A DNA stretch of 58,650 nucleotides from Alphaproteobacteria bacterium. Its GTDB lineage: Bacteria; Pseudomonadota; Alphaproteobacteria; MPNO01; UBA830. The notes beneath the pieces were generated by a model, which had not been told where the DNA came from, did no database searches, and worked only from the letters and a program-made list of their open reading frames with translations. Where the stretch lies: contig JAYOEF010000005.1 in assembly GCA_038106605.1 (NCBI GenBank), positions 1 to 58,650 on the forward strand, in the 5' to 3' direction. Below, in pieces: positions 18,611-36,767 of the stretch; the first letter of the stretch is position 1; every line of letters starts with the position of its first letter. A program made the translations under genes and the position numbers.

Positions 18611-20023
18611 TCAGCAGCTGTAGTACATCTGGAATTCGATCGGGTGCGGCGCATGCTCGAAGGCATAGACCTCCTGCCACTTGAGCTCGAGGTAACCGTC
18701 GATCAGATCGTCCGGGAACACGTCGCCCTTCGTGAGGAACGCACGGTCGGCGTCGAGCGCGTTCAGCGCCTCGCGCAGGCTGTGGCAGACGGTCGGGATG
18801 TCCTTAAGCTCCTCGGGCGGCAGATCGTACAGGTTCTTGTCCATCGGATCGCCGGGGTGGATCTTGTTCTGGATGCCGTCGATGCCGGCCATCAGCATCG
18901 CCGCGAAACCGAAGTAGGGGTTGGACGTCGGGTCCGGGAAGCGGACTTCGACGCGCTTGCCCTTCGGCGAGGTGGCGTGCGGGATACGGCAGGAGGCCGA
19001 GCGGTTGCGCGCGGAGTAGGCGAGCAGGACCGGGGCTTCGAAGCCGGGGATCAGGCGCTTGTAGCTGTTGGTCGAGGCGTTGGTGAAGGCGTTGATGGCC
19101 TTGGCATGCTTGATGATGCCGCCGATGTAGTAGAGCGCCATCTCCGACAGGTCGGCGTAGCTCGACCCCGCGAAAAGCGGCTTTCCGTCCTTCCAGATCG
19201 ACTGGTGGACGTGCATGCCCGAACCGTTGTCGCCGTAGATCGGCTTCGGCATGAAGGTCGCCGTCTTGCCGTAGGAGTGCGCGACGTTGTGGACGCAGTA
19301 CTTGTAGATCTGCACCCAGTCGGCGACCTTGAGCATCTCCGAACCGCGGATGCCCAGCTCCTGCTGGCTCGCGGCGACTTCATGGTGATGCTTCTCGACC
19401 GAGACGCCCATGTCTTCCATGACGGTGAGCATTTCGGCGCGGAGATCGGTCATCGAGTCGACCGGCGGGACGGGGAAGTAGCCGCCCTTGATGCCCGGAC
19501 GGTGACCGGTGTTGCCACCCTCGAGCTCGGCGCCCGAGTTATAGGGGCCTTCCTCTTCGTTCAGCATGAACATCGACTTGTTCATGCTGACTTCGAAGCG
19601 CACGTCGTCGAACACGAAGAACTCGAGTTCGGGGCCGAAGAACGCCATGTCGCCCAGGCCGCTCTGCGCCAGGTAGGCCTCGGCGCGCTTCGCGGTCGAG
19701 CGCGGGTCGCGGCTGTAGGGCTGTCCGGTGGAGGGCTCGATGACGTCGCAGAAGATGATCAGCTGTTCCTGGGCGGCGAACGGATCCATGACGGCCGTCG
19801 TGCAGTCCGGCATCAGCGTCATGTCAGATTCGTTGATTTCCTTCCAGCCCGCGATCGAGGAGCCGTCGAACATGAGGCCTTCGGTCAGCATGTCCTCGTC
19901 GACGGTGCAGATGTGCTGCGCCGTGTGGTGCCACTTGCCGCGGGGATCCGTGAACCGGAAGTCCACGTATTTGACGTTCTTTTCCTCAATCATCTTGAGG
20001 ACATTCTTAACTGCGTCCGCCAT
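18611..20023 (-). CDS. glnA: Glutamine synthetase type I
   Basis: [43 protein letters not shown], adenylylation site NLYDLP. Confidence 0.98.
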
Positions 20024-20154
20024 CTCTGATTTCCTTTCTGTGACGTGCGTGTGCTGTTTTGTTCATCGGGCGTGCCGATGGTCCCGGGAGTCCAGGTTGT
20101 CGGGGCTGCCCTGAGGTGCGACGACCTCGGGAGGGGTGGCCGTTTGGGCCGGCC

Positions 20155-20686
<532 letters not shown>

Positions 20687-22923: not shown

Positions 22924-23045
22924 GATATCGCATTGGATTTCGGGTGCTTTTGCCGCCAATATGAAATCCGGGTGAGCGAACCTCGTTGCACAGGGCCGCA
23001 CCGCCGCCGGAAGGGCGGCGCATGGCCGGAACAGAGATTTCGAGT

Positions 23046-24050
23046 ATGGCGCTGACGTTCGAAGACGACCCCATCGACGATCCCGTGATGACCCGCGAAT
23101 GGCTGGTCGTCGGACGCTCCGAGGACCTCAAGGACGGCGAGGTGATGCCGGCGACGCTGCTCGGCACCGATATCGTGCTGTGGCGCTCCGGCGACAGGGT
23201 GATGGCGTGGCGCGATCTCTGCGTCCATCGCGGGTCCCGGCTGTCGCTCGGCACCGTGAAGGACGGGCGGCTTCTCTGCCCGTACCACGCGTGGGAATAC
23301 GACTGCACCGGCGCCTGCACCCACATTCCGGCGATGCCGAACGTCAAGCCGCCGCCCAAGGCAAAGGCACAGGTATTCAAAGCGAAGGAGGCCTACGGCT
23401 TCATCTGGGCGTGCCTCGGCGAGCCGCGCTGCGATGTGGCGCCGTTCCCGGAATGGGAGATGAACTCGTTCCGGAAGCAGATCGTCGGGCCCTACGTGTT
23501 CCACGCGAGCCCGTTCCGCACCATCGAGAACTTCACCGACATCCCGCATTTCCCGTTCGTCCACCCGATGGTAAACGGCGATCCCGACAAGCCCGACGTG
23601 ATCCCGGACTACGAGGTCTACAGCGACGACGTCGACGGTATCAGCATGAGCCCCGTCGAGGTCTGGCAGCCCTATGCGGATCACCGCGGCGTACCGGCGA
23701 TGGCCGAATACCGCTATTCGATCTTCCGGCCGCTCACCGCCTACTTCAAGAAGGCGACGGGCGAGGGCAACATGTTCTGCATGATGCTGTCTGCGACGCC
23801 GGTGGCGGAGGACGAGACCCTCGTCTGGCTCCTCGTCGCGATCAATTTCGGCGACCAGGTGACCGAGCAGCAGATCATCGACCGGCAGAACACCGTGTTC
23901 GCGCAGGACAAGTGGATCGTCGAGTCCCAGCGTCCCGTGGGCATCCCGCTCGACCTGCAGGACGAGCTCCATGTCCGCGTCGACAAGTTCTCGGTCGCCT
24001 ACCGGCGCTGGCTCAAGGATCTCGGCCTCACTTGGGGCGTGGCGCACTGA
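23046..24050 (+). CDS. Rieske non-heme iron oxygenase, VanA/O- or N-demethylase-like
   Basis: CVH-x16-CPYH Rieske motif, ENFTDIPHFPFVH, QDKWIVESQ; alternative start at 23022. Confidence 0.9.
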   Translation: MALTFEDDPIDDPVMTREWLVVGRSEDLKDGEVMPATLLGTDIVLWRSGDRVMAWRDLCVHRGSRLSLGTVKDGRLLCPYHAWEYDCTGACTHIPAMPNVKPPPKAKAQVFKAKEAYGFIWACLGEPRCDVAPFPEWEMNSFRKQIVGPYVFHASPFRTIENFTDIPHFPFVHPMVNGDPDKPDVIPDYEVYSDDVDGISMSPVEVWQPYADHRGVPAMAEYRYSIFRPLTAYFKKATGEGNMFCMMLSATPVAEDETLVWLLVAINFGDQVTEQQIIDRQNTVFAQDKWIVESQRPVGIPLDLQDELHVRVDKFSVAYRRWLKDLGLTWGVAH

Positions 24051-24711: not shown

Positions 24712-25938
24712 ATGACGCCAGATGGCACGAAGGACGGCACGCAGGGTTACTCGGGCGACGGTTCCGGCTACGGGCGCATCGGCGCGCCGGTCGAGGAGAA
24801 CCGCATTCTTCAGCAGACCGCGTTCGGCACGCCGATGGGCGAATTGCTGCGCCGTTACTGGCAGCCGGTGTGCCTGTCGGCCGAGCTCGGCGATCTGCCG
24901 AAGCGCATCCGCATCCTGGGCGAGGACCTCGTCGCCTTCCGCGACGGCAGCGGCCGCGCCGGGCTCCTCTACGCCCACTGCATCCACCGCGGCGCGTCGC
25001 TCGAATACGGCCAGATCGCCGACGGCGGCATCCGCTGCTGCTATCACGGCTGGTACTTCGACACGGAAGGGCGCTGTCTCGATATGCCCGCCGAGCCGCC
25101 CGGCAGCGATTATCCGTCGAAGGTGCGCCAGCCCTGGTACCCGGTGCGGGAGTATCACGGGCTCGTCTTCGCCTACATGGGCCCGCCCGACCGCATGCCG
25201 GCGTTCCCGCGCTACGACATCCTCGACGACCCGGAAGGCGAGCGCATCGCCTACCGCAACGAGACCCGCGGCGAGATCGCGGCGTGCAACTGGCTGCAGC
25301 TCCAGGAGAACGCCATCGATGCGGCGCATCTCTTCATCCTTCACACCTGGCACCACGGGATGCACGAGTTCACGGATGCCTACGGCGCCCGTCCCGAGCT
25401 CGGCTTCACGCGCACCGGCTTCACCGTCCAGTACCATCGCGAGGCCGAGCTGCCTAACGGCAACCGCTTCCTGAGAGTTGGCGAGGTGCTGGTGCCGACG
25501 GCGCGCTCCATCGCCGCGCCGACGGTGACCGGCGACGATCCCGAGAACGAGACCGAGCCCGCGCGCATGGTCGGCTGGTGGGTGCCGGTCGACGACGAGA
25601 ACACCGTAGGCTTCCACATCGAGGTGCGCCCGCCGCTGCCGGATGGAAGACCTCACAAGGCCTACCAGCCCGCCGTGATCCCGGAGCGCTCCTACGAGGA
25701 ACGCCAGCGCCGCCCCGACGACTGGGAGGCGCAGATCGGGCAGGGCGCGATGGCGAGCCACGCGCGCGAGCATCTCGGCACATCGGACATGGGGATCGTC
25801 CATTTCCGGCGGCTGTTGCGCGCGGGCCTCGATGCGATCGCGAAGGGAGAGGATCCGCCGGGCGCGCTGAGAACGGGCGAGACCATGCGAGTCCGCGTCG
25901 GCGCGCGGAATGAGGTGACGCCGCCCGTCGGGGCCTGA
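24712..25938 (+). CDS. Rieske oxygenase alpha subunit, phthalate 4,5-dioxygenase-like
   Basis: GTPMGELLRRYWQP, CIH..CCYHGW, CNWLQLQEN..D..H....H, EHLGTSD.G. Confidence 0.9.
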   Translation: MTPDGTKDGTQGYSGDGSGYGRIGAPVEENRILQQTAFGTPMGELLRRYWQPVCLSAELGDLPKRIRILGEDLVAFRDGSGRAGLLYAHCIHRGASLEYGQIADGGIRCCYHGWYFDTEGRCLDMPAEPPGSDYPSKVRQPWYPVREYHGLVFAYMGPPDRMPAFPRYDILDDPEGERIAYRNETRGEIAACNWLQLQENAIDAAHLFILHTWHHGMHEFTDAYGARPELGFTRTGFTVQYHREAELPNGNRFLRVGEVLVPTARSIAAPTVTGDDPENETEPARMVGWWVPVDDENTVGFHIEVRPPLPDGRPHKAYQPAVIPERSYEERQRRPDDWEAQIGQGAMASHAREHLGTSDMGIVHFRRLLRAGLDAIAKGEDPPGALRTGETMRVRVGARNEVTPPVGA

Positions 25939-25941
25939 GCG

Positions 25942-26886
25942 TCAGATCACGCGGTGGAGCAGGGGTTCGCCGTCCCGGAGGCGGCGGCAGTTCTCGAAGG
26001 CGACGCCGAGGCTGCGCGACAGCGTCTCCGGCGTCAGCCACGCGATGTGCGGCATCAGCACGACGTTCGGGAGATCGAACAGCGGATTGCCGGCGGGCGC
26101 CGGCTCGACCGTCACGACGTCCAGTCCGGCGGCGCGGAGCTTCCCCGATTTCAGCGCGGCGACCAGCGCCGCCTCGTCGACGAGCCCGCCGCGCGCGGTG
26201 TTGACGAGGACGGCGCCCGGCTTCATCGCAGCAATGGCAGATGCGTCGATCAGCCGTTTGGTCTCGGCGATCAGCGGCAGATGGAGCGAGACGATGTCGG
26301 ATTCCTTGAGGAGCTGCGGCAGCGTCCGCCACTCGGCCTCGGCATCGTCCTTCTTCGACGTCGCGGTGTAGATCACCTGCGCGCCCATCGCCTTCAGGAT
26401 GGGGGCGAGGATGCGCGCGACCTCGCCATAGCCGACGAGGCCGACCGTGCGGCCCGCCACCTCGCCGAGCCCGTCGAAGGCATCAAGCTCGGCCGTCCAG
26501 CCTTCGCCCGCGCGCATCCTGGGATCGAAATAGGAGACGCGTCGGAGCGCCGCGAGCATCAGCGCGAGGGTCATCTCGGCGACCGCGCGCGAATTCGTGC
26601 CCGGCATGTTGGCGACGGCGATCTTCTTCGCCTTCGCGTGTTCGAGATCGATGGTGTTCACGCCGACGCCGATCTTCTGGATCAGGCGGAGCTTCGGCGC
26701 GCCGTCCATTGCCTCTGCCGTCACGCGTTCCAGTACGTGGAGGAGCACGTCGGCATCCTTCATCTCGCGGGCGAAAGTCTCCTTGTCCGCCTCGTCGACC
26801 ACGGCGACCTCGATCCAGCCGGGTTTCGCGGCTTCGATCTGCACCCGGAACCCCGGGCTTGCGCGGTACTGGAGGACGGCTTTCAC
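25942..26886 (-). CDS. D-isomer-specific 2-hydroxyacid dehydrogenase
   Basis: GVGVN.ID, N..AVAE, GYGEVA, NTARG, EP, PHIAW; GTG start 10 bp after the enolase stop. Confidence 0.92.
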   Translation of the reverse strand: MKAVLQYRASPGFRVQIEAAKPGWIEVAVVDEADKETFAREMKDADVLLHVLERVTAEAMDGAPKLRLIQKIGVGVNTIDLEHAKAKKIAVANMPGTNSRAVAEMTLALMLAALRRVSYFDPRMRAGEGWTAELDAFDGLGEVAGRTVGLVGYGEVARILAPILKAMGAQVIYTATSKKDDAEAEWRTLPQLLKESDIVSLHLPLIAETKRLIDASAIAAMKPGAVLVNTARGGLVDEAALVAALKSGKLRAAGLDVVTVEPAPAGNPLFDLPNVVLMPHIAWLTPETLSRSLGVAFENCRRLRDGEPLLHRVI

Positions 26887-26896
26887 GGTGCCGCCT

Positions 26897-28162
26897 TCAG
26901 GTCCCGGCGAGGCGGGCGTCGTTCCCGAGGGCTTCCTCGATGCGGAGCACTTCGTTCCACTTCGCCATGCGCTCCGAGCGCGCGAACGAGCCGACCTTGA
27001 GCTGGCCCGCGTTCCAACCGACCGCAAGGTGGGCGATGGTGACGTCCTCGGTCTCGCCGGAGCGCGCCGAGACGACCGTGCCCCAGCCGGCATTCCTCGC
27101 CGCATCGAGCGCCGCCTTGGTCTCGGTGATCGTGCCCGCCTGGTTCGGCTTGATCAGAGCGGCGTTGCAGATGCCGGCGTCGGCGGCGTTCGCGATGCGC
27201 GTCGAGTTGGTGACGAGGAAGTCGTCGCCGATGATCTGCACCGTCTCGCCGTAGGCCTCGGTGAACGCCTTGAAGGCTTCGGGATCGTCCTCGCCGAGCG
27301 GATCCTCGATGAAGTAGATCGGGTAGCGGTCGATCCAGCGCCCGAGCATTTCGATCATGCCGTCGCCGTCGAGCTCGCGCTTCTCGAGCCCGAGGAGGTA
27401 GCGACCGTTCTCGCCGAACTCGGAGGCGGCGATGTCGAGCGAGATCGCGATGTCCTCGCCGGGCTCCCAACCCGCGTCCTCGATGGCGCGCACCAGCATG
27501 TCGAGCGCTTCCTCGTTGGTCGAGAAGGAGGGCCAGTAGCCGCCCTCGTCGGCGACGCCCGCGAGCTTGCCGGCCTCGCTCATCAGCCGGCGCGCGGAGA
27601 TATAGACCTCGGCCACCATCTCGAGCGCGTCGTCGAAGCTCTCCGCGCCGACCGGGACCGCCATGAAGTCCTGGATGTCGACGCGGCGGCCTGCATGCGC
27701 GCCGCCGCCGAAGATCTGGATCTCCGGCATCGGGATGCGGACGGGTGCGCCGCGTGCGAGGTAGCGCCACAACGGCTGCTTGTGTGCGGACGCAACCGCC
27801 TGGAGCACGGCCATCGATACCGAGATCATGGCGTTGCCGCCGAGGCGGGATTTGGTGTCGGTGTCGTCCTTCTCGATCATGCGGAGGTCCACGTCCTCCT
27901 GGTCGATCGCGTCCATGCCGCGCAGCAGTTCGGCGATTTCGCCGTTGACGTTGTCGAGCGCGTTCTCGACGCCGTAGCCTGCGAGATCGTCGCCGCCGTC
28001 CCGGAGGTCGATCGCCTCGAAGCGGCCGCGCGAGGCGCCGGCGGGCGCGATCGCGCGTCCCGTCGCGCCGCCCGCGAGCGTGACCTCGGCCTCGACGGTA
28101 GGTCGTCCGCGCGAATCCCAGACGCGCCGTCCCATGACGGATGTGATGACGGTGTCGCTCAT
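26897..28162 (-). CDS. Enolase-family protein (divergent phosphopyruvate hydratase paralogue)
   Basis: DSRGRPTVE, GAS, GGGAHA, DEGG, D.AASEF, IEDP, GDD..VTN, LIKPNQ, RSGETED, RSER.AK.N; atypical QDFM and SARS; ATGA overlap with the kinase. Confidence 0.92.
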   Translation of the reverse strand: MSDTVITSVMGRRVWDSRGRPTVEAEVTLAGGATGRAIAPAGASRGRFEAIDLRDGGDDLAGYGVENALDNVNGEIAELLRGMDAIDQEDVDLRMIEKDDTDTKSRLGGNAMISVSMAVLQAVASAHKQPLWRYLARGAPVRIPMPEIQIFGGGAHAGRRVDIQDFMAVPVGAESFDDALEMVAEVYISARRLMSEAGKLAGVADEGGYWPSFSTNEEALDMLVRAIEDAGWEPGEDIAISLDIAASEFGENGRYLLGLEKRELDGDGMIEMLGRWIDRYPIYFIEDPLGEDDPEAFKAFTEAYGETVQIIGDDFLVTNSTRIANAADAGICNAALIKPNQAGTITETKAALDAARNAGWGTVVSARSGETEDVTIAHLAVGWNAGQLKVGSFARSERMAKWNEVLRIEEALGNDARLAGT

Positions 28163-29157
28163 TCGAAAGCCTCTTCCAAGTACACGCGGCAGACGCCCGC
28201 GAGGGTTTCCGGCATTCGCAACAGCGCCGCCCGTGCCGCCCGCCGCACGCGCGCCTTGTCGCCGTCGTCCGTGATGTACTCCACGGGCGACGTCCCGTCG
28301 ATACGCGCAAGCAGGAGGCCGGGAAGAAGTGCCGCCGTGCGGCGTTCGAGCAACAGCCGGTCTTCCCAGCTCGCATGTGCGAAATAGGCGTGCGAGAGAG
28401 CGGCGAAGGCGTCGAGATAGCGGTCGCGCCACTGCGGCCGCCAGACGCACTTGAGGAGGAGGTGGTTGAGGCAGAAGGCGAGGTCGAAAGCGGGATCGCC
28501 GTACCATGCGCATTCGGCGTCGAGGAACACGGGCCCCTTCGGTCCGATCAGGATGTTTTTCGGGCTCACGTCGCCGTGGACGAGCGTGCGCTTGGTCTCC
28601 GCCGTGTTTTTTGCAATTGCACGAAGCCGGTCGCCGAGGTCGGGGTGCGCTTCGGCGGTATCGAGCAGGTAGGGCGCGATGCGGATCGGATGGAAGATGT
28701 GGTCGTTCGCGAACCGCGCCGCGATGTCGGTGTCTCCCGCGGTGCCGGCATGGATACGCCCGAGCGCGTCGCCTACGGCGGCGGCGTCCTCGCTCCGGAT
28801 CCGCCCGTCGCGCAGCTCGGACTTCCAGACCGGATGGTCGTCGGGGTCGAGATATTCCATCGCGAAGAGACCGTCCTCGCGGGATTCCGCGAGGAGCCGG
28901 GGCACGTTCGCGGGGACGATCGCGGCGGCGACCCGCATCCACTCGGCCTCGCAGGCATTGCGCTCGACCGGCGCCTTCCACTCGCGCGCGGTGCGGAGCT
29001 GGGCCAGCGCGCGCTTGACGCAGATCGGCCCGGCGGCGCGCTCGACCTTCCAGATGTCGGACGACACGCCGCCCGTGAGCGGCGTCAGCACCGGCGTCTC
29101 GTCCGGCCCGGCGAGCCCGCGCCGTCGCAGCGCCGCGACGATGTCTGCGTCGCTCAT
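28159..29157 (-). CDS. APH-superfamily small-molecule kinase (methylthioribose-kinase-like)
   Basis: LTGGVSS, VKRAL, HGDVSPKN, LDAEC.WYGDPAFD; ATGA overlap with the AbrB-family gene. Confidence 0.88.
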   Translation of the reverse strand: MSDADIVAALRRRGLAGPDETPVLTPLTGGVSSDIWKVERAAGPICVKRALAQLRTAREWKAPVERNACEAEWMRVAAAIVPANVPRLLAESREDGLFAMEYLDPDDHPVWKSELRDGRIRSEDAAAVGDALGRIHAGTAGDTDIAARFANDHIFHPIRIAPYLLDTAEAHPDLGDRLRAIAKNTAETKRTLVHGDVSPKNILIGPKGPVFLDAECAWYGDPAFDLAFCLNHLLLKCVWRPQWRDRYLDAFAALSHAYFAHASWEDRLLLERRTAALLPGLLLARIDGTSPVEYITDDGDKARVRRAARAALLRMPETLAGVCRVYLEEAFE

Positions 29158-30269
29158 TCGCCCGGCGCGGGGCGCGCGCCGAGGAAGCGCCGGGCGAGAT
29201 GGAACGCGGGCAGGGTCAGCGTCGTGATCATGAGAATCCGGACGACGTGGTAGGCCGTCACCAGCGGCACGCCGAGCTTGAGGACGGCGGCGGTGAGGCT
29301 CATCTCGGCGAGGCCGCCCGGCGCGGTCGCCGCGATCATCGCGGTCGCGACGATATTCGTATGGTGCGCGATGAAGACCGCGAGGCCGAAGGCGACGGCC
29401 ATCATCACGACCGTCGTGATCGCCGAACCCAGGATGACCCGGGGCGCCGATGCCATCGCCGTGCGGTCGAAGCGTTCGCCGAGTGCCGTGCCGATGAACA
29501 CCTGCGCGGCGCTCAGGAGGACGCGGGGCATCGCCGACAGCTCGATGTCGAACACGGTCAGCAGGCTGGTGACGATCGCGGCACCGAGCATCCAGCAATT
29601 GGGGACGCGGAGGCGGTAGAGCGTCAGCGCGCCCAATAGCGCGATGGCGAGGAGGAGGGCGAGGTACTTCGCATCGACCGTCTTCACCAGCGGAACGAAC
29701 ACGTCTTCGCCGGTCTGGCCGAAGAACGTGAGCGCCGGCGGGATCGACAGGATGACGATGGTGACCCGGGTGAGCTGCGACAGGGTGAGCTGCACGGGCC
29801 GCGCACCGAAGCGGTCGCCGAGCGCGAGCATCTCGGCCATGCCGCCCGGCACGTTGCCGAAGAAGGCGGTCGCGCCGTCCACCCGGGCGACGCGCATCAG
29901 GATCGCGCCGCCGACCGCGCCGAGGCCGATCGAGACCAGCGCGGCGAGGATCATCCAGGGCAGGTGAGAGGCGACGATCGCCGCGACCGTGGGCGTGAAG
30001 TAGAGGCCGATCGTCGTCCCGATGAAGATCTGACCGAGCTGTCGCGAGCCCTTCGGTCCCCTGATCCGGGGGCCCGCGAGATTGACGGCCGCGACCGCGA
30101 AAAGCGATCCGAAGAACCATGGAAGCGGGGCGTGGACGAGGAAGAGCAGCCAGCCGCCGAACGTGCCGAGCGCGAGCGTCGGCAGGCATTTTGCGATATC
30201 GAGGAGCGTCGGGCGGTGGCGTTTCACGCGCCGGTTAGACGGCAAGGCGCGGGGCTTGTCAAATTCCAT
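29154..30269 (-). CDS. AbrB-family duplicated membrane protein (putative ammonia monooxygenase-like family)
   Basis: Two repeats: PLPW..G, Q.FIG, PGGMAEM / PGGLAEM, about 10 TM segments; alternative GTG start near 30227. Confidence 0.88.
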   Translation of the reverse strand: MEFDKPRALPSNRRVKRHRPTLLDIAKCLPTLALGTFGGWLLFLVHAPLPWFFGSLFAVAAVNLAGPRIRGPKGSRQLGQIFIGTTIGLYFTPTVAAIVASHLPWMILAALVSIGLGAVGGAILMRVARVDGATAFFGNVPGGMAEMLALGDRFGARPVQLTLSQLTRVTIVILSIPPALTFFGQTGEDVFVPLVKTVDAKYLALLLAIALLGALTLYRLRVPNCWMLGAAIVTSLLTVFDIELSAMPRVLLSAAQVFIGTALGERFDRTAMASAPRVILGSAITTVVMMAVAFGLAVFIAHHTNIVATAMIAATAPGGLAEMSLTAAVLKLGVPLVTAYHVVRILMITTLTLPAFHLARRFLGARPAPGE

Positions 30270-30290
30270 TCGCGGGCGTTTCGCGGCGCC

Positions 30291-30324
30291 GAAACGAAGA
30301 GAGGCGGGACTATGCCCGCCTCTC
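30291..30324 (-). terminator. Hairpin or terminator after the solute-binding protein gene
   Basis: GAGAGGCGGG-catagt-CCCGCCTCTC then TTCGTTTC on the minus strand. Confidence 0.6.
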
Positions 30325-30347
30325 CCGGTTCCCTGCGGAACTCCTGC

Positions 30348-31544
30348 TTACTTGCAGGGCAGCGCCGGATGCTCTTCCAGCAGCTCCCACTGCTTGTTCT
30401 TCATCGTCAGCACGTAGCCCGGAAGCTGGGCGTCGCCCGTCTTCTCGAAGCAGATGTTGCCGATGATGCCCGAGTAGGTGAGCGTGCCGAGCGTGTCGCG
30501 GATCGCGGTGCGTTCCGCCTTCACCTTGGCCGGGTCGCCGGTGACGCCCGCCTTCTCGATCGCCGCCTTGAGGATGTAGACGATGTCGTAGGCCGAGGCG
30601 TCGACATGGTGCGGGAACGGCTTCTCGATGCCCTGGGCCTTGGACGCGGCGACGAACTTGTCGCTGAAGTCCTGCGAGCGCTTGTCGCGCTTGTACCAGT
30701 ACCAGGTGGCGAAGACCGAGCCGTCGCCGTCGGTGCCGAACTTGTCGACGATTTCGGGATCGGCCCAGATCTGCGCGCCGATAAGGGGCGTGTTGATGCC
30801 CTGGCGGCGCATCTCCTTGAGCACGCGGATCGCGATCGGCGTGATGCCGGCGACGCCGACATAGTCGATGTCCTTGCCCTTGAGCTCGGAGACCTGCGCC
30901 GAAACGTCGAACGCCTTGGAGGCGAAGCCGATCGGGCCGGTGATCTTGACGCCTTCCTTGTCGAAGATCGGCTTCATGATCGAGAGGCCGACCGCCTTGG
31001 AGACGACGTCGTCGGTGCCGTACATGATCGCGACCGACTTCGAGAGCGCGTTGCGCTTCTTCTGGGTGTTCACCACGCGGATGAACTGGAGGTATTCGCT
31101 CTCGGTCACCCGGAAGGCGTAGGAGAATTTGTCGGCGAGGTTGGGCGCGGACGACGCGTTCGGGATCTGGACGATGCCCTCGCGCTCGCCGGCCGCGAAG
31201 GCGACCTGCGCCTCGCTCGACGAGAACGGGCCGATGACGGCGAGCGCCTTGTCGTCCTGAGCGAACTTGCGCACCGCGACGACGGCCTGCTTGGGATCGC
31301 CCGCGGTGTCGAACTTCACCATGCGGATCTTCTTGCCGCCGATGCCGCCCGCGGCGTTGATTTCGGCGACCGCTATGTCGACGGCGACCTCGGTGGTCTT
31401 GTTGATCGTCGAATAGAGGCCGGTCCGGCCGAAGCTGAGGCCGAGTACGATCTCGTCCGCCGCCATGGCGGCCGGGCCGGCCGCGGCCACGGCCGCGAAG
31501 GCGCCGATCGCCAGCGCCGGCAGTCTAAAGGCTTTACGCATCAC
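30348..31544 (-). CDS. ABC transporter substrate-binding protein, Liv/HAAT family
   Basis: Signal peptide; AVAEINAAGGI.GK, DTAGDP, IGPFSS, YD.VY. Confidence 0.9.
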   Translation of the reverse strand: MMRKAFRLPALAIGAFAAVAAAGPAAMAADEIVLGLSFGRTGLYSTINKTTEVAVDIAVAEINAAGGIGGKKIRMVKFDTAGDPKQAVVAVRKFAQDDKALAVIGPFSSSEAQVAFAAGEREGIVQIPNASSAPNLADKFSYAFRVTESEYLQFIRVVNTQKKRNALSKSVAIMYGTDDVVSKAVGLSIMKPIFDKEGVKITGPIGFASKAFDVSAQVSELKGKDIDYVGVAGITPIAIRVLKEMRRQGINTPLIGAQIWADPEIVDKFGTDGDGSVFATWYWYKRDKRSQDFSDKFVAASKAQGIEKPFPHHVDASAYDIVYILKAAIEKAGVTGDPAKVKAERTAIRDTLGTLTYSGIIGNICFEKTGDAQLPGYVLTMKNKQWELLEEHPALPCK

Positions 31545-31597: not shown

Positions 31598-32296
31598 TTA
31601 TCCGCCGAGATAGGCCTCTTCCAGTCGGCTGTCCCCGGCAAGCGTATCAGAAGCGCCTTCGAGGACAACTCTGCCGAGTTCGAGCACGTAGGCGCGGTCC
31701 GAGTGGGCGAGCGCCATGTGCGTGTTCTGTTCGACGAGCAGGATGGTGAGCCCGCCGTCGTTGAGTTCGCGGATCAGGTCGAATAGCTGGCGGACGAGGA
31801 GCGGGCTGAGCCCGAGCGACGGCTCGTCGAGCATCATCAGCCGCGGCTTCGCGAGGAGCGCGCGGCCGATCGCGAGCATCTGCTGTTCGCCGCCGGAGAG
31901 CACCGACGCCGGCATGGACCGGCGCTTCGCGAGATTGGGGAAGCGGTCGTAGATCGCCTCGATCTCGGCGGAAAATTCGTCGTTCCGGCAGTATGCGCCC
32001 ATCTGCAGGTTCTCGTGGACGGTGAGGCTGACGAAGATCTGCCGCCCCTCGGGAACGAGGACGAGCCCGCCGCGCACGCGCTTCGGCGCCGACCAGCCGG
32101 AAATGTCGGTGCCGTCGAAGATCACCGATCCCGTCGATTTCTCGGTGCCCTGGATCGCCTTGAGGAGAGAGCTCTTGCCGGCGCCGTTCGCGCCGAGCAC
32201 CGTCACGATCTCGCCCGCGTCGAGCCGCAGGCCCACGGACTTCACGGCATGGTTCCGCCCGTAGCGGACGTCGAGACCGTTGACCTCAAGCAGCAT
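31598..32296 (-). CDS. ABC ATP-binding protein, LivF-like
   Basis: GANGAGKS, VPEGR, LSGGEQQM, LDEPSLGL. Confidence 0.93.
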   Translation of the reverse strand: MLLEVNGLDVRYGRNHAVKSVGLRLDAGEIVTVLGANGAGKSSLLKAIQGTEKSTGSVIFDGTDISGWSAPKRVRGGLVLVPEGRQIFVSLTVHENLQMGAYCRNDEFSAEIEAIYDRFPNLAKRRSMPASVLSGGEQQMLAIGRALLAKPRLMMLDEPSLGLSPLLVRQLFDLIRELNDGGLTILLVEQNTHMALAHSDRAYVLELGRVVLEGASDTLAGDSRLEEAYLGG

Positions 32297-33059
32297 GGCT
32301 GTCCCCGTCGCCGCCAAGATAGGCCTCGAGAACGCCCGGATCGCGATGGACCTCCTCCGGCGTCCCCTCGAAGATCTTGCGTCCGAAATTAAGCACGACC
32401 ACGTGGTCGCACAGGTTGCGGACGAAATGCATGTCGTGCTCGACCACGAGGATCGTGACCCCGGTCGCCGACACGCGCTGCAGCAGCTCCTGGAGCTGGC
32501 GGGTCTCGGTCTCGTTGAGGCCCGCCGCCGGCTCGTCGAGCAGCAGGAGCTTCGGCTGCGAGACCATTGCGCGGACGACCTCGATCCGCTTCTGCACGCC
32601 GTAGGGCAGGTTGGCGACGACCTCGCCCGGATAGGTGTCGAGACCCGCGTCGTGCAGCGCGGCCTCGGCCTGCGTCCGCCACCTGTTGCGGGCGATCAGG
32701 CCGATGGGGAACAGGAGGTCGCCGAGGCCCCGGGCCCGCGCGTGCTGGCCGAGCATCACGTTTTCGACGGTCGACAGATGCGGCATCAGCCGGATGTTCT
32801 GGAAGCTGCGCGACATGCCGTGGACGACGCGGTTCCGGGCGGGCACGTTCGTGATGTCGGCGCCGTCGAGCGTGATCCTGCCCGCGTCGATCGGATAGAC
32901 GCCGGTGAGGAGGTTGAAGACCGTGGTCTTGCCCGCGCCGTTCGGGCCGATCAGCGCGGTGCGGCTGCCGCGGCGGACGTCGAAGGACACGTCGTCGATG
33001 ACGAGGAGCCCGCCGAAGCTTTTCGAGAGGCCGGCGATGGTGAGGACGTTGCCGCTCAT
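32286..33059 (-). CDS. ABC ATP-binding protein, LivG-like
   Basis: [30 protein letters not shown]. Confidence 0.93.
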
Positions 33060-33958
33060 GGCGCGGCGTCCCCGGCGGGGCGCGCGCGCCCGCGCCCGGT
33101 GAGCACGCCCTTGCAGCGGTCGATGAACGTCCGCGTCACGACGCCCTCGGGGCGGAAGACCATCATCAGCACGATGAAGGCGCCGAAGAAGATGAACCGG
33201 CTATCGGCGAGCCATTTCCAGTCCATCGCGTTCGCGAGTTGACGGAAGGCCTCGGGCACGATGGTGAAGAAGGCCGCGCCGACGATCGGGCCCCACGCGG
33301 TCTGGGTGCCGCCGAGGAGGACGTAAAGGAGGATGTAGATGCTGAGGAGGACGTTGAAGGTCTGCGCCTCGATGAAGTTGTACTGGTGGCCGTAGAGGGC
33401 CCCGCCGAGCCCCATCAGCATGCCGCCGAGGGTGAAGGCGGCCACCTTGGCGGTCCGGACGTCGACGCCGAACAGGGTCGCGACGCTCTCGTCGTCGTGG
33501 ATCGAGCGGAAGGCGAGGCCGAGGCGGGTCGACATCAGGTAGAAGCAGAACAGGATGACGGCGAAGGTGACCGGCACGATGACGGCGACCGAGATGTAGC
33601 CCTCGACCGGCATGCCGGCGGCGCCGCCGAGGAACTCCATGTTGATGGCGAGCCCGGAGACCACCTCGGCGAAGGCGAACGTCGCGAGCACCATGTAGAC
33701 GCCGCGGGTTCTCAATATCGGGAACGAGATCAGGAACGAGATCGCCCCGGTGAAGGCCATGGAAAGGGGAATGCTGACCGCGACCGGCAGGTTGAGGCCC
33801 ACCTGCGCGTTGAACCACGAGCTCGCATAGGCGCCGAGGGTGACGAACCCGGCGGCGCCGAGGTTGAGCTGGCCCGAGGCGGCGGGCAGGAAGACGCCGT
33901 AGGCGTAGACCGTGCTCAGGCAGAAGATGATGAGCTGGGATTCGAGGTAGCCGCTCAT
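33056..33958 (-). CDS. ABC permease, LivM-like
   Basis: GQLNLG, G.Y..LAT, GPIVGA, RPEG. Confidence 0.9.
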
Positions 33959-33959
33959 C

Positions 33960-34904
33960 TCAGAACTTCCCCTTGCCGATGCGGCTGTGGCCGAACAGGC
34001 CGGTCGGGCGCAGCACCAGCGTCAGCAGGAGGAGACCCCAGATCGGGACCTTCACGAAATCGGCGCCGACGATGTAGATCGACAGCACCTCCAGCACGCC
34101 GACGAGGAGGCCGCCCACGATCGCGCCCCAGACATTGCCGAGCCCGCCGAGCACCATGCCGGCGATGGCGACGGTCGCCACGGTGTCGCCCACGTAGGCG
34201 TCGATGGTGGTGTAGTTGATCGTGAACAGGATGCCGGAGACCGCGCAGAGGAGACCGGTGATCACGTAGACCACGGGAACGATGCGCAACACCTCGACGC
34301 CCATCAGGGTCGCGGTATCCGGCCTTTCTGCAATGGAGCGGAGCGCCCGGCCGAGGCGAGTCGACTTGATGATGTAGCTGAGGAGCGCGACGATCCCGAG
34401 CGAGAGCCCGAGACTGATGATCTGCGGCCAGCTGAACAGGATCTTGCCGATGGTGAAGGTCGCATTGCCGAAGGGGGACGTGATCTGCAGCGGATCGGAG
34501 CCCCATGCGCTGATCACCGTGTGCTCGAAGATGATCAGGAAGCCGAGCGAGGAGACCAGCGGCAGCGCATGCTCCGTCGCGTCGCCGTACTTCGCCTTCA
34601 TGTAGCGGTAGGTGAAGCGCTCGACCACCAGCGAGATCAGCGCGGTCACGACGAGAGAGACGACGATGCCGGCGATCCAAAGATTGGCGTTTCCGAACAG
34701 GGCTTCGAGCGCTTCGTTGCCGAAGGGCAGGTTGCCCGTCATCGTCGCCCACATCAGCACCGCGGCGAACATGAACAGCGCCGGGATGGTGAAGTTGAGG
34801 AAGTTCAGCATGCCGATGATGAGCGTGAAGGCCACCGCGACCATCACGTACACACCGCCAAGCATCAGCCCGTTTATGAGCTGCTGAAGGAGGAGAAAGT
34901 CCAA
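33960..34904 (-). CDS. ABC permease, LivH-like
   Basis: QQLINGL.LG, LGRALR, GGLGN..G, RPTGLFG; TTG start with AGGGAAG RBS. Confidence 0.9.
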   Translation of the reverse strand: MDFLLLQQLINGLMLGGVYVMVAVAFTLIIGMLNFLNFTIPALFMFAAVLMWATMTGNLPFGNEALEALFGNANLWIAGIVVSLVVTALISLVVERFTYRYMKAKYGDATEHALPLVSSLGFLIIFEHTVISAWGSDPLQITSPFGNATFTIGKILFSWPQIISLGLSLGIVALLSYIIKSTRLGRALRSIAERPDTATLMGVEVLRIVPVVYVITGLLCAVSGILFTINYTTIDAYVGDTVATVAIAGMVLGGLGNVWGAIVGGLLVGVLEVLSIYIVGADFVKVPIWGLLLLTLVLRPTGLFGHSRIGKGKF

Positions 34905-34945
34905 ACGCGTCTTCCCTGTTATGGGAACATTACAGTCCGAACTGT

Positions 34946-34963
34946 TTGTGCATTGCAATACGA
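34946..34963. promoter_or_regulatory. Possible operator upstream of the ABC operon
   Basis: Palindromic core ATTGCAAT within TTGTGCATTGCAATACGA, overlapping a plausible minus-strand -10. Confidence 0.3.
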
Positions 34964-35043
34964 ATCGTGGGACTCCGTCCAATCATCGTCCCGCAAGCGG
35001 GAAACGGCCGCGGCCGGCCGCTTCCCCGGTACGGCTGGTTCCC

Positions 35044-36015
35044 TTACTTCTTCTTCCGGCGCCCGCGCTTCTGGTTCTCGGGCGTCTCGGTGCGGCCCTT
35101 CCGGCGCTTCTTCGTCGGGATGTGGCTTTCGTGGTTCTTCAGGTACCACTTCGCGATCTCCTCGCGCGTCGTCCACCAGACGTCGGGGAACTGCTTCGCG
35201 TAGTCGATGAACTCGCGCACGCAGCGCGCGCGGAACGGCTGGCCGACGACGTGGGGATGGAGGCCGAGATTCATCAGCCGTCCGCTCGTCGCGCCCTCGG
35301 CGTAGAGCGTGTCGAACTGCTCCTTGAACAACTCGAACGCCTCGGTCGTCGTGTTGCCGCGGCGCATGAAGATCATGAAGTCGTTCACTTCGTTCGTGTA
35401 CGGCACCGAGACGATCGGCCCGTGATCGGTGTGGATCAGGTAGGGCTGGTCGTCGTTGAGATAGTCGGTGGTGTAGAGAAGCCCTTGCTCGGCGAGGATC
35501 TCGACCGTCGACGGATTGGCGCGGAGCGACGAGGACAGCCAGCCGGTGGCGGGTTTGCCGACCACGTCCTTGTAGACGCGGAGCGTCTCGAGCACGAGTT
35601 CGCGCTCGCCTTCCTCGTCGAAGTAGTAGTTCGTCAGCAGGTCGGACTGGACGTAGTTGTGGGCGACGAGCTCCCAGTTGCGGTCGATGCAGTACTGCAC
35701 CGCCTGCGGCCGTTCGAGGCCCATCTTGGCGTTCATCGTGCAGCTCGCCGGCACGCCCGCGCGCTCCATGATGTCGAACAGGCGCCAGATGCCGACGCGC
35801 TGGCCGTACTCGCGCCAGGTGTAGTTCGGGATGTCGGCGACGTTGCCGGGCAGGGGATCCGGGAGGATCGCCGGGCCGCCCGCGTAGTAGGCCTCCTCGG
35901 TGTCCTTGGTCAGGTCCCAGTATTCGAGATTGAACGTGATGAGCATCGCGATGCGCGCGCCGTTCGGCCATTTGAGCGGCTTGCGTTCCGGCATCGGTAC
36001 GAAATCGTAGTACAT
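35044..36015 (-). CDS. Polysaccharide-deacetylase-family protein, PuuE/allantoinase-like
   Basis: WPNGARIA, N.E.W, REYG.RVG.WR, GWL, DDQP, LHPH..G.P.R; GAGG RBS. Confidence 0.88.
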   Translation of the reverse strand: MYYDFVPMPERKPLKWPNGARIAMLITFNLEYWDLTKDTEEAYYAGGPAILPDPLPGNVADIPNYTWREYGQRVGIWRLFDIMERAGVPASCTMNAKMGLERPQAVQYCIDRNWELVAHNYVQSDLLTNYYFDEEGERELVLETLRVYKDVVGKPATGWLSSSLRANPSTVEILAEQGLLYTTDYLNDDQPYLIHTDHGPIVSVPYTNEVNDFMIFMRRGNTTTEAFELFKEQFDTLYAEGATSGRLMNLGLHPHVVGQPFRARCVREFIDYAKQFPDVWWTTREEIAKWYLKNHESHIPTKKRRKGRTETPENQKRGRRKKK

Positions 36016-36134
36016 GGTCCCCTCTGTGGCGTTGTTGTCCCCACTTCGATCATAATGGAACGATCGCGGCGCCGGGAAACGAATCCCGGAACCGTTAGAA
36101 AGACGAGGGAAGAGGAACGATGGAGGAGGGCGCG

Positions 36135-36767
36135 ATGAGGATCGATGCACCCGCGACGACGACGGACGGCATGCTGCCCGCCGCCGCGCGTTTCGTCGGC
36201 GAGATGAGGGCGCTGTTCGCGGAGGGCCTCGACGAGAGGGCGCTCTGGACCGAGGCCTGCGATCGTCTCCGCGATCTCCTCGCCGATCCCGAGCTCCAGC
36301 GTCATGCGCAGACCTGGCCCGACAGCCTCGCGGCCGGCGGACGTCCGTCGAACCTGCTGTTCTACGAGGATCCCGACCACGGCTTCGTCCTCAACGCTCT
36401 GATCAAGGCGCCGGACGCGAACAGTTCCGTGCATGACCACGGCCGTTCGTGGACGCTCTACGGCGTGCTGGAGGGGGCGGAACGGGTGACGCGTTACGTA
36501 CGAGACGACGAGGGCGCACCGACCGGGGCGGAAGCAGATCCGGCACGGCTGAGCGAGACCGGGACGCACGACGTCGTTCCCGGATACATCGATTTCGTCC
36601 CGCCGTGGGAGATCCACCAGGAATGCAACGGGCCCGCGCGCACCGTCGGCTTCATCGTGCGCAGCCAGCGTTCGGGAACGTTCGTGCAGAACCGCTTCGA
36701 CCGGGCCGCCGGGTCGGTCGTGCAATACGACGGACCCGTGCAGGTGCCCTATCGGCTGGGATGGTGA
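36135..36767 (+). CDS. Cysteine-dioxygenase-like cupin
   Basis: VHDHG.SW..YGV..G.E and later IH (three-His metal site); GGAGG RBS. Confidence 0.75.
   Translation: MRIDAPATTTDGMLPAAARFVGEMRALFAEGLDERALWTEACDRLRDLLADPELQRHAQTWPDSLAAGGRPSNLLFYEDPDHGFVLNALIKAPDANSSVHDHGRSWTLYGVLEGAERVTRYVRDDEGAPTGAEADPARLSETGTHDVVPGYIDFVPPWEIHQECNGPARTVGFIVRSQRSGTFVQNRFDRAAGSVVQYDGPVQVPYRLGW

Follow-up and report, generated by a model that had tools for sequence, protein, structure and literature searches.

The serine cycle employs hydroxypyruvate reductase, glycerate 2-kinase, enolase and phosphoenolpyruvate (PEP) carboxylase, and the non-phosphorylative Entner-Doudoroff route ends in glycerate 2-kinase and enolase. 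To our knowledge, the enolase family proper is treated as isofunctional. Here we describe a four-gene unit encoding an AbrB-family membrane protein, a kinase, an enolase and a 2-hydroxyacid dehydrogenase. It lies in contig JAYOEF010000005.1 of an alphaproteobacterial assembly (GCA_038106605.1), of which positions 1 to 58,650, analysed as a whole, are referred to as the window. The core of this unit is a widespread pair, comprising the kinase and an altered second enolase, that probably turns glycerate or a close relative into PEP.

The unit resembles these two pathways in the proposed order of its reactions, namely reduction, phosphorylation of O2 and dehydration, and in having a 2-hydroxyacid dehydrogenase as a partner. 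Related clusters add a linkage to ppc in Rhizobium and a sugar-acid context in Halomarina. By contrast, the kinase has an MtnK/APH fold and belongs to neither the MOFRL nor the GK-I family, the enolase is a dedicated, altered paralogue, and the genomes that carry the module also hold classical MOFRL and eno genes. An earlier note on this DNA knew of no described pathway with this combination; consistent with that view, full-text literature searches, supplementary files aside, found no description of a pair of an APH/MtnK-type kinase and an enolase.

Direct reading of the sequence reproduced exactly the arrangement given in the earlier note, of four co-oriented genes (Table 1) with two ATGA overlaps and a 10-nt gap. 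The AbrB/kinase junction is the ATGA at 29157-29154 and the kinase/enolase junction is that at 28162-28159. The enolase gene ends in a TGA (26899-26897) and is followed, after 10 nt (AGGCGGCACC), by the GTG of the dehydrogenase gene at 26886. Due to the G+C content of the window (62-70%), long shadow open reading frames (ORFs) are abundant, but the four gene models still hold. A longer dehydrogenase ORF, reaching 27105, would run into the enolase gene. The enolase frame is itself open for 694 codons (26897-28981, minus strand), covering most of the kinase gene in another frame, and could lead gene callers to a false, long enolase N-terminus.

To place the kinase, we compared it with curated families and solved structures. 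The protein matched the Pfam family APH (PF01636) with 71 bits against a cut-off of 23.2. Only APH-type families matched; of the known families of glycerate kinases, neither GK-I (PF02595) nor MOFRL (PF05161) did. The best NCBIfam match was MtnK (TIGR01767), at 53.9 bits well below the cut-off of 275. An AlphaFold model of the kinase had a pLDDT of 94.6, and its closest folds were the plant and Bacillus 5-methylthioribose kinases (PDB 2pyw and 2olc; TMq 0.81-0.89, 14-18% identity). The label 'APH/MtnK-like' given in the earlier note is therefore right as to fold; according to the curated cut-off, the protein is not an MtnK. Overall, MtnK is the closest fold and the closest NCBIfam and PDB sequence match, and it shares the APH catalytic motifs. 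The module kinase differs in its low identity and sub-threshold score, in being shorter by ∼70 residues, and in the genes around the pair, among which none for methionine salvage was observed. Across 49 sequences, the HGDxxxxN and DAE motifs do not vary, with H194, G195, D196, N201 and D213 constant.

The kinase belongs to a very large family; each of the 8000 candidates that were scored reached significance, and the best 120 shared 58-93% identity with the window's protein. In the sources these relatives bear generic names or none, including 'aminoglycoside phosphotransferase family', a Bud32-type label and gene-call strings. That the only family name given is 'aminoglycoside phosphotransferase family', together with weak matches to LxmK and corramycin phosphotransferase, would suit a resistance or protein kinase (antibiotic, lanthipeptide or similar) accompanied by a non-catalytic or moonlighting enolase. 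We consider this very unlikely. The LxmK- and corramycin-type matches all lie far under their cut-offs, and the closest fold is that of a small-molecule 5-methylthioribose kinase. Moreover, annotated records and Pfam tallies around the pair comprise largely metabolic enzymes and transporters, with no annotated resistance or peptide-biosynthesis gene.

To investigate the association of the kinase with the enolase, we examined loci from species-representative genomes, in which at least 584 of 600 pattern matches encoded a relative of the kinase; the best 80 were kept. The co-occurrence described in the earlier note recurred widely. An enolase gene followed the kinase gene on the same strand in 77 of the 80 loci, its product sharing 53-81% identity with that of the window. 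These loci belong to Alpha-, Beta- and Gammaproteobacteria, Vicinamibacterales and one Dehalococcoidia genome. Two of the three unlinked loci, L045 and L079, end 116 and 268 nt past the kinase gene, respectively, leaving L060 as the single real exception. According to a start-codon heuristic, the 77 junctions comprised 34 start/stop overlaps of 4 nt, 10 other overlaps, 13 gaps of up to 30 nt, 13 of 31-150 nt and 7 that were longer. Cultured members of Methylobacterium, Rhizobium, Rhodococcus, Paracoccus and Roseibium also have the pair, as does a haloarchaeon; among the cultured carriers are Paracoccus seriniphilus DSM 14827, Rhizobium sp. CIAT894, Methylobacterium nodulans ORS 2060 and Azospirillum brasilense Sp7.

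The two proteins are often fused. Long relatives of the kinase accounted for 129 matches; among the 120 listed, 87 carried the enolase motif SxRSGE, in which x was Ala in all 87. The kinase was N-terminal in 85 of these, the same order as that of the window's genes, so that fusions account for at least 85 protein clusters. These data indicate that the kinase and the variant enolase form the conserved core of the unit. A predicted kinase-enolase complex scored 0.00 against a mark of 0.32 and was given no weight in either direction. In four Burkholderiales loci, a gene encoding a 130-aa VOC/glyoxalase-family protein stands between the kinase and enolase genes (Table 1). A VOC gene also adjoins the variant enolase gene in the Rhizobium clusters.

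We then examined how the partner enolase differs from canonical enolase (EC 4.2.1.11). The window's protein has the two-domain architecture of the family (Enolase_N, PF03952, 149.6 bits; Enolase_C, PF00113, 312.3 bits) and passes the NCBIfam eno model TIGR01060 with 492.6 bits against a cut-off of 300. The partner enolases were named phosphopyruvate hydratase in every annotated record examined, since they pass this curated model. Alignment with solved enolases revealed IQDFM in place of IQEFM and SARSGETED in place of SHRSGETED, as well as PAGASRG for PSGASTG, GGYWP for GGFAP and KPNQAGT for KLNQIGT. Among these, PAGAS for PSGAS, GG[YFW]WP for GGFAP and KPNQAGT for KxNQIGT are clade-wide.

The first two changes are the most consistent. 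The canonical Glu was Asp in 89 of 89 kinase-linked rows, and the canonical His was Ala in 88, the remaining row having Gly. The rows are the enolases of the fetched loci, the window included, with five rows duplicating loci that were fetched twice; the Halomarina enolase (L103) lies outside the scored set. The kinase-enolase fusions showed the same pattern, with Asp at the first site in 82 of 87. In canonical enolases from the same genomes, both Glu and His were retained (5 of 5 rows). We take the two positions to be Glu168 and His373 of yeast enolase, around the C3 hydroxyl of 2-phosphoglycerate. The DxAxSE, IEDP, GDD, KxNQ, RSGE and KxGS motifs, presumably those of the metal ligands, the catalytic Lys and Glu, and the phosphate-binding RS, are retained in the variants. 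Retention of the metal-ligand and catalytic motifs in every variant enolase speaks against a non-catalytic or moonlighting role of the protein.

Phylogenetic analysis separated the variants from canonical enolases, with which they share ∼45-48% identity in the carrier genomes. In a quick IQ-TREE search of 89 rows, duplicates removed, the 82 main-type kinase-linked rows, including that of the window, formed one clade (SH-aLRT 100). The copies of Methylobacterium nodulans and Rhodococcus formed a second, small group that has the Asp/Ala pair but not the other changes. Within the main clade, the rows from Vicinamibacterales and one from Dehalococcoidia are interspersed with those of Proteobacteria. 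Judged by this mixing of taxa, the kinase-enolase module appears to have been transferred horizontally. The Dehalococcoidia carrier (L092) has a third enolase-like gene (genome G004, contig 1, 347168-348415; 332 bits) that has diverged at several conserved sites (MTAAPGETED, SGGMAAT) and is possibly another non-canonical branch.

The least likely of the readings considered is that the window's enolase is the organism's housekeeping glycolytic enzyme and that its neighbours carry no pathway meaning. In its own assembly the variant is the sole match to TIGR01060, and it passes the equivalog cut-off; however, the assembly is 60.62% complete, in 147 contigs. In all five chromosome-level carriers, a canonical eno (590-670 bits) lies elsewhere in addition to the kinase-linked copy (440-495 bits). 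Similarly, a canonical eno of at least 647 bits was present in 20 of 20 relatives of the window's organism. Its own family yielded a second enolase match at 440-500 bits in 11 of 12 genomes, a range that takes in the window's copy (493.6 bits in this comparison), the copies being matched by score, with the signature and kinase neighbour looked at only in the genome of L004. The twelfth assembly spans 1.1 Mb and is 70% complete. Genomes from the order's other families had a second match in 2 of 8 cases. Based on the canonical copies of the relatives and the incompleteness of the assembly, the organism's housekeeping eno most likely lies in a portion of the genome missing from the assembly. The position of the window's enolase inside the kinase-linked clade, and its possession of the clade signature, likewise support its assignment as a paralogue rather than the housekeeping copy. 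The second, canonical eno that the earlier note called for is thus present in carriers and relatives, but the window's own assembly shows the variant alone; the divergence of the enolase, also asserted there, is borne out by its separate clade and Asp/Ala signature and by its coexistence with canonical copies.

The third recurrent member of the module is a reductase. The window's dehydrogenase matched 2-Hacid_dh_C (PF02826; 191.7 bits) and 2-Hacid_dh (PF00389; 94.3 bits). It fell below every NCBIfam equivalog cut-off, including those of GhrB, glyoxylate reductase PRK13243 and PGDH (174-211 vs 454-492 bits), and its nearest solved relatives are phosphoglycerate dehydrogenase and the glycerate dehydrogenase/glyoxylate reductases. 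On these matches, it is likely a 2-oxoacid reductase of the hydroxypyruvate type. According to tblastn, an orthologue, defined by at least 45% identity and a distance of at most 400 nt from the pair, was found near the pair, on one side or the other, in 27 of the 80 loci. The Pfam tally found 12, an undercount due to the codon-usage gene caller, which misses some genes. Elsewhere, other reductases take its place. The annotated Rhizobium, Rhodococcus and Halomarina clusters contain a non-orthologous, CtBP-like 2-hydroxyacid dehydrogenase (31-38% identity), and a CtBP-like dehydrogenase was found in an unannotated Cupriavidus record by tblastn match only. In addition, the kinase is fused to a 2-Hacid_dh domain in P0235 and to ApbA-type ketoacid reductase domains in P0210 and P0214. 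The repeated recruitment of unrelated 2-oxoacid reductases argues for a reductive step, yielding a D-2-hydroxy acid, as part of the pathway.

We favour, with moderate confidence, a reading in which the unit encodes a short pathway by which a three-carbon acid enters central metabolism as PEP after reduction, phosphorylation of O2 and elimination. The AbrB-type carrier, and possibly also the neighbouring ABC importer, would take up a carboxylate. The D-2-hydroxyacid dehydrogenase would reduce a 3-substituted pyruvate, most likely hydroxypyruvate, to a D-2-hydroxy acid (D-glycerate), and the MtnK-fold kinase would phosphorylate the 2-hydroxyl. The enolase paralogue would then take the C2 proton and expel the C3 substituent to yield PEP, which ppc could carboxylate. 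The common denominator of the genomic contexts would be a three-carbon D-2-hydroxy acid whose C3 bears a leaving group, supplied by reduction of a 2-oxo acid, by FAH-type hydrolysis or perhaps by a glyoxalase-like VOC route. The earlier note had proposed a parallel reduce-phosphorylate-dehydrate route acting on a glycerate analogue. Its scheme is the one favoured here; within it, D-glycerate and 2-phosphoglycerate are slightly ahead of the analogue.

Among candidate substrates, D-glycerate fits the genomic contexts best. In three Rhizobium plasmids, the cluster begins ppc-dehydrogenase-kinase, with the variant enolase gene a few genes off, and this placement of ppc points to PEP as the product. 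In Halomarina, the pair lies among genes for sugar-acid dehydratases, a DHDPS-family protein and glucose 1-dehydrogenases. In Paracoccus and Roseibium, genes for a FAH hydrolase and SDRs come after the pair, accompanied by a sugar ABC system under a LacI regulator. FAH genes flank the pair in Rhodococcus, a FAH protein is fused to the kinase in P0219, and a FAH orthologue directly follows the dehydrogenase gene in L002, L007, L012 and L004. The sugar-acid genes of Halomarina, the FAH and SDR genes of Paracoccus and Roseibium, and the FAH orthologues and fusion suggest a glycerate-producing context.

The FAH and SDR genes recall the non-phosphorylative L-rhamnose and L-fucose routes, which comprise a 2-keto-3-deoxy-acid 4-dehydrogenase (SDR) and a 2,4-diketo-3-deoxy-acid hydrolase (FAH). 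NF053535 is presumably the named model for the latter hydrolase. Such genes stand beside the pair in Paracoccus, Roseibium, L002 and L007. By contrast, the best NCBIfam match of the L002 FAH protein, to 2,4-didehydro-3-deoxy-L-rhamnonate hydrolase, was weak (84.5 bits vs a cut-off of 500), the window has neither gene, and lactate, the end product of the known routes, offers an enolase no leaving group. No FAH gene was found in the window's 58 kb, and elsewhere in the assembly only distant FAH paralogues were found. The same assembly was searched for a canonical eno, a MOFRL gene and an orthologue of the L002 FAH gene, with either nothing or only distant paralogues found; at this degree of completeness, these negatives carry no weight.

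Several observations weigh against the assignment of D-glycerate and the route built on it. The substrate is read from genomic context alone. Apart from the reductase, the genes next to the pair vary widely, the linkage to ppc is confined to one lineage, the window lacks the FAH and SDR genes of its closest relatives, and the second enolases of the window's family were, as stated above, identified by score. If both changed positions act around the C3 hydroxyl, as we assume, plain 2-phosphoglycerate may not be the substrate; the invariance of the two active-site changes in the alignment would likewise argue against plain D-glycerate. That the kinase is almost never parted from its own enolase argues in the same direction. 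Finally, a D-glycerate route would be redundant in the five complete carriers, all of which have elsewhere a protein of the MOFRL type, that of the glycerate 2-kinases (GK-I in none), as well as a canonical enolase.

A possible but clearly less probable reading retains the scheme and replaces the substrate with a glycerate analogue, such that the module would phosphorylate O2 of another 3-substituted D-2-hydroxy acid and carry out a β-elimination. The analogue could be a D-lactate with another leaving group on C3 (sulfonate, thiol or amine), from which release of sulfite, sulfide or ammonia would still yield PEP. Alternatively, it could be a four-carbon 2,3-dihydroxy acid, which would yield a homologue of PEP. 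The universal Glu-to-Asp and His-to-Ala substitutions and the further clade-wide changes in the enolase would be explained by such a substrate, as would the presence of canonical eno and a MOFRL protein in all five complete carriers. The near-obligate coupling or fusion of the two proteins also suggests that the housekeeping enolase does not process what the kinase makes. However, the ppc linkage argues for a C3 skeleton, the sugar-acid and FAH/SDR contexts point to glycerate itself, and the nearest solved relatives of the dehydrogenase act on glyoxylate, hydroxypyruvate or phosphohydroxypyruvate. Moreover, no sulfite-, sulfide- or ammonia-handling family was found among the 25 commonest Pfam families in a tally of 146 first and 145 second neighbours of the pair. 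The first neighbours were led by EamA (13), FGGY kinase (12), hotdog thioesterase (7), ParA (6) and FAH (5), with many of the tallied neighbours coming from syntenic loci labelled Burkholderiales or Betaproteobacteria.

Two further ideas were set aside. For desulfonation of sulfolactate, no sulfite-handling family was present among those commonest neighbours. L-Glycerate or L-2-phosphoglycerate, which L-sugar acids would yield, was ranked low since the 2-oxoacid reductase that recurs beside the pair is D-specific. Work on CpgD and 2-phospho-L-glycerate, described in a preprint, proved irrelevant.

Returning to the favoured route, if D-glycerate is the substrate, the kinase would add a fourth type of glycerate kinase, not homologous to the others and having a dedicated enolase to which it is often fused. 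If the substrate is another compound, the enolase family proper would contain a second reaction specificity, and a widespread catabolic route would be hidden under the name 'phosphopyruvate hydratase'. In either case, metabolic reconstructions that count the variants as glycolytic enolases, or that seek glycerate kinase only in the known families, are likely wrong for many soil, freshwater and marine bacteria.

Table 1. Coordinates of the four-gene unit, its upstream neighbours and the VOC/glyoxalase genes inserted in related loci.
Feature	Position	Strand	Remarks
AbrB-family membrane protein	29154-30269	minus	371 aa; first gene of conserved four-gene unit
MtnK-fold (APH) small-molecule kinase	28159-29157	minus	332 aa; start overlaps AbrB stop (ATGA)
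Variant enolase paralogue	26897-28162	minus	421 aa; start overlaps kinase stop (ATGA)
D-isomer-specific 2-hydroxyacid dehydrogenase	25942-26886	minus	314 aa; GTG start
Spacer, binding-protein stop to AbrB start	30270-30347	minus	78 nt
Liv-type (HAAT) binding protein, LivK-like	30348-31544	minus	
Liv ATPases	31598-32317 and 32286-33059	minus	
Liv permeases	33056-33958 and 33960-34982	minus	
PuuE-allantoinase/polysaccharide-deacetylase-related gene	35044-36150	minus	beyond Liv operon
VOC/glyoxalase insert, L014	8005-8397		
VOC/glyoxalase insert, L034	4430-4825		
VOC/glyoxalase insert, L035	7951-8370		
VOC/glyoxalase insert, L063	7986-8372		

The first protein of the unit matched PF05145 with 246.7 bits, covering profile positions 1-312 of 314. 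It is internally duplicated, with TIGR03082 matching in two stretches (206.4 bits vs a cut-off of 94.7). One study (PMC8396727) assigns PF05145 to the CPA/AT transporter superfamily and gives it a reentrant-helix fold, for which the citrate carrier CitS served as the model. It is plausible that the AbrB protein acts as a secondary carboxylate transporter. The order AbrB-kinase-enolase-dehydrogenase is common to the window and five loci (L002, L007, L009, L011 and L012), in which the AbrB orthologue, of 68-76% identity, directly precedes the kinase. The enolases of these five loci and the window form one clade (support 95). The earlier note had included AbrB in the combination that would define the pathway. 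As a general partner it did not hold up: AbrB is next to the pair in these five of the 80 loci and in none beyond them, and is confined to the window's narrow clade.

The unit lies directly downstream, on the same strand, of a Liv-type ABC importer, as the earlier note had it, but the importer is not part of the conserved unit. It adjoins the unit in the window and in two of the five closest loci, L002 and L007, and not in L009, L011 or L012. In L002 and L007, a divergent SDR gene stands between the binding-protein and AbrB genes. The solved structures related to the binding protein are only distant ones, of Leu/Ile/Val binders, and do not point to a ligand. The spacer between the binding-protein and AbrB genes is predicted to form three hairpins (−41.1 kcal/mol, z −3.13, with 0 of 200 shuffles as stable), including a G+C-rich stem of 12 perfectly matched base pairs with UUCGUUUC after it. 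The spacer possibly acts as a terminator or attenuator dividing two transcription units; a scan for consensus terminators did not list the hairpin. In view of the importer's presence in two of five loci, the interposed SDR gene, the PuuE-like gene found in its place elsewhere and the hairpin spacer, we read the Liv operon as a neighbouring, perhaps cooperating, unit outside the conserved operon.

The PuuE-like gene, located beyond the Liv operon in the window, encodes a protein that is 80-87% identical to those encoded upstream of AbrB in L009, L011 and L012. It is directly adjacent to AbrB in L009 and ∼1 kb away in L011 and L012, and may be part of the same metabolic context. Its product had no Pfam match at E ≤ 0.001; it matched TIGR03212 with 157 bits against a cut-off of 424.6, and PDB entries 1z7a and 3cl6 are related.

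On the other side of the module, the window contains two Rieske oxygenase genes (22986-24050 and 24712-25938, both plus strand), one VanA-like, the other LigXa-like. A distance of 3 nt separates the end of the second from the stop of the dehydrogenase gene on the opposite strand. Compared with L002, L007, L012 and L004, the two genes are inserted in the window before a conserved aminotransferase gene; they have no counterpart in any fetched locus. Genes for glutamine synthetase and a P-II nitrogen regulator (18611-20634, minus strand) adjoin a CBS-domain gene and that of a class I/II aminotransferase. This block is syntenic in relatives and frames the module on one side. Lastly, a 215-aa protein with no Pfam or NCBIfam match is encoded at 36120-36767 (plus strand), and proteins of 63-69% identity are encoded in the same divergent position in L009, L011 and L012.

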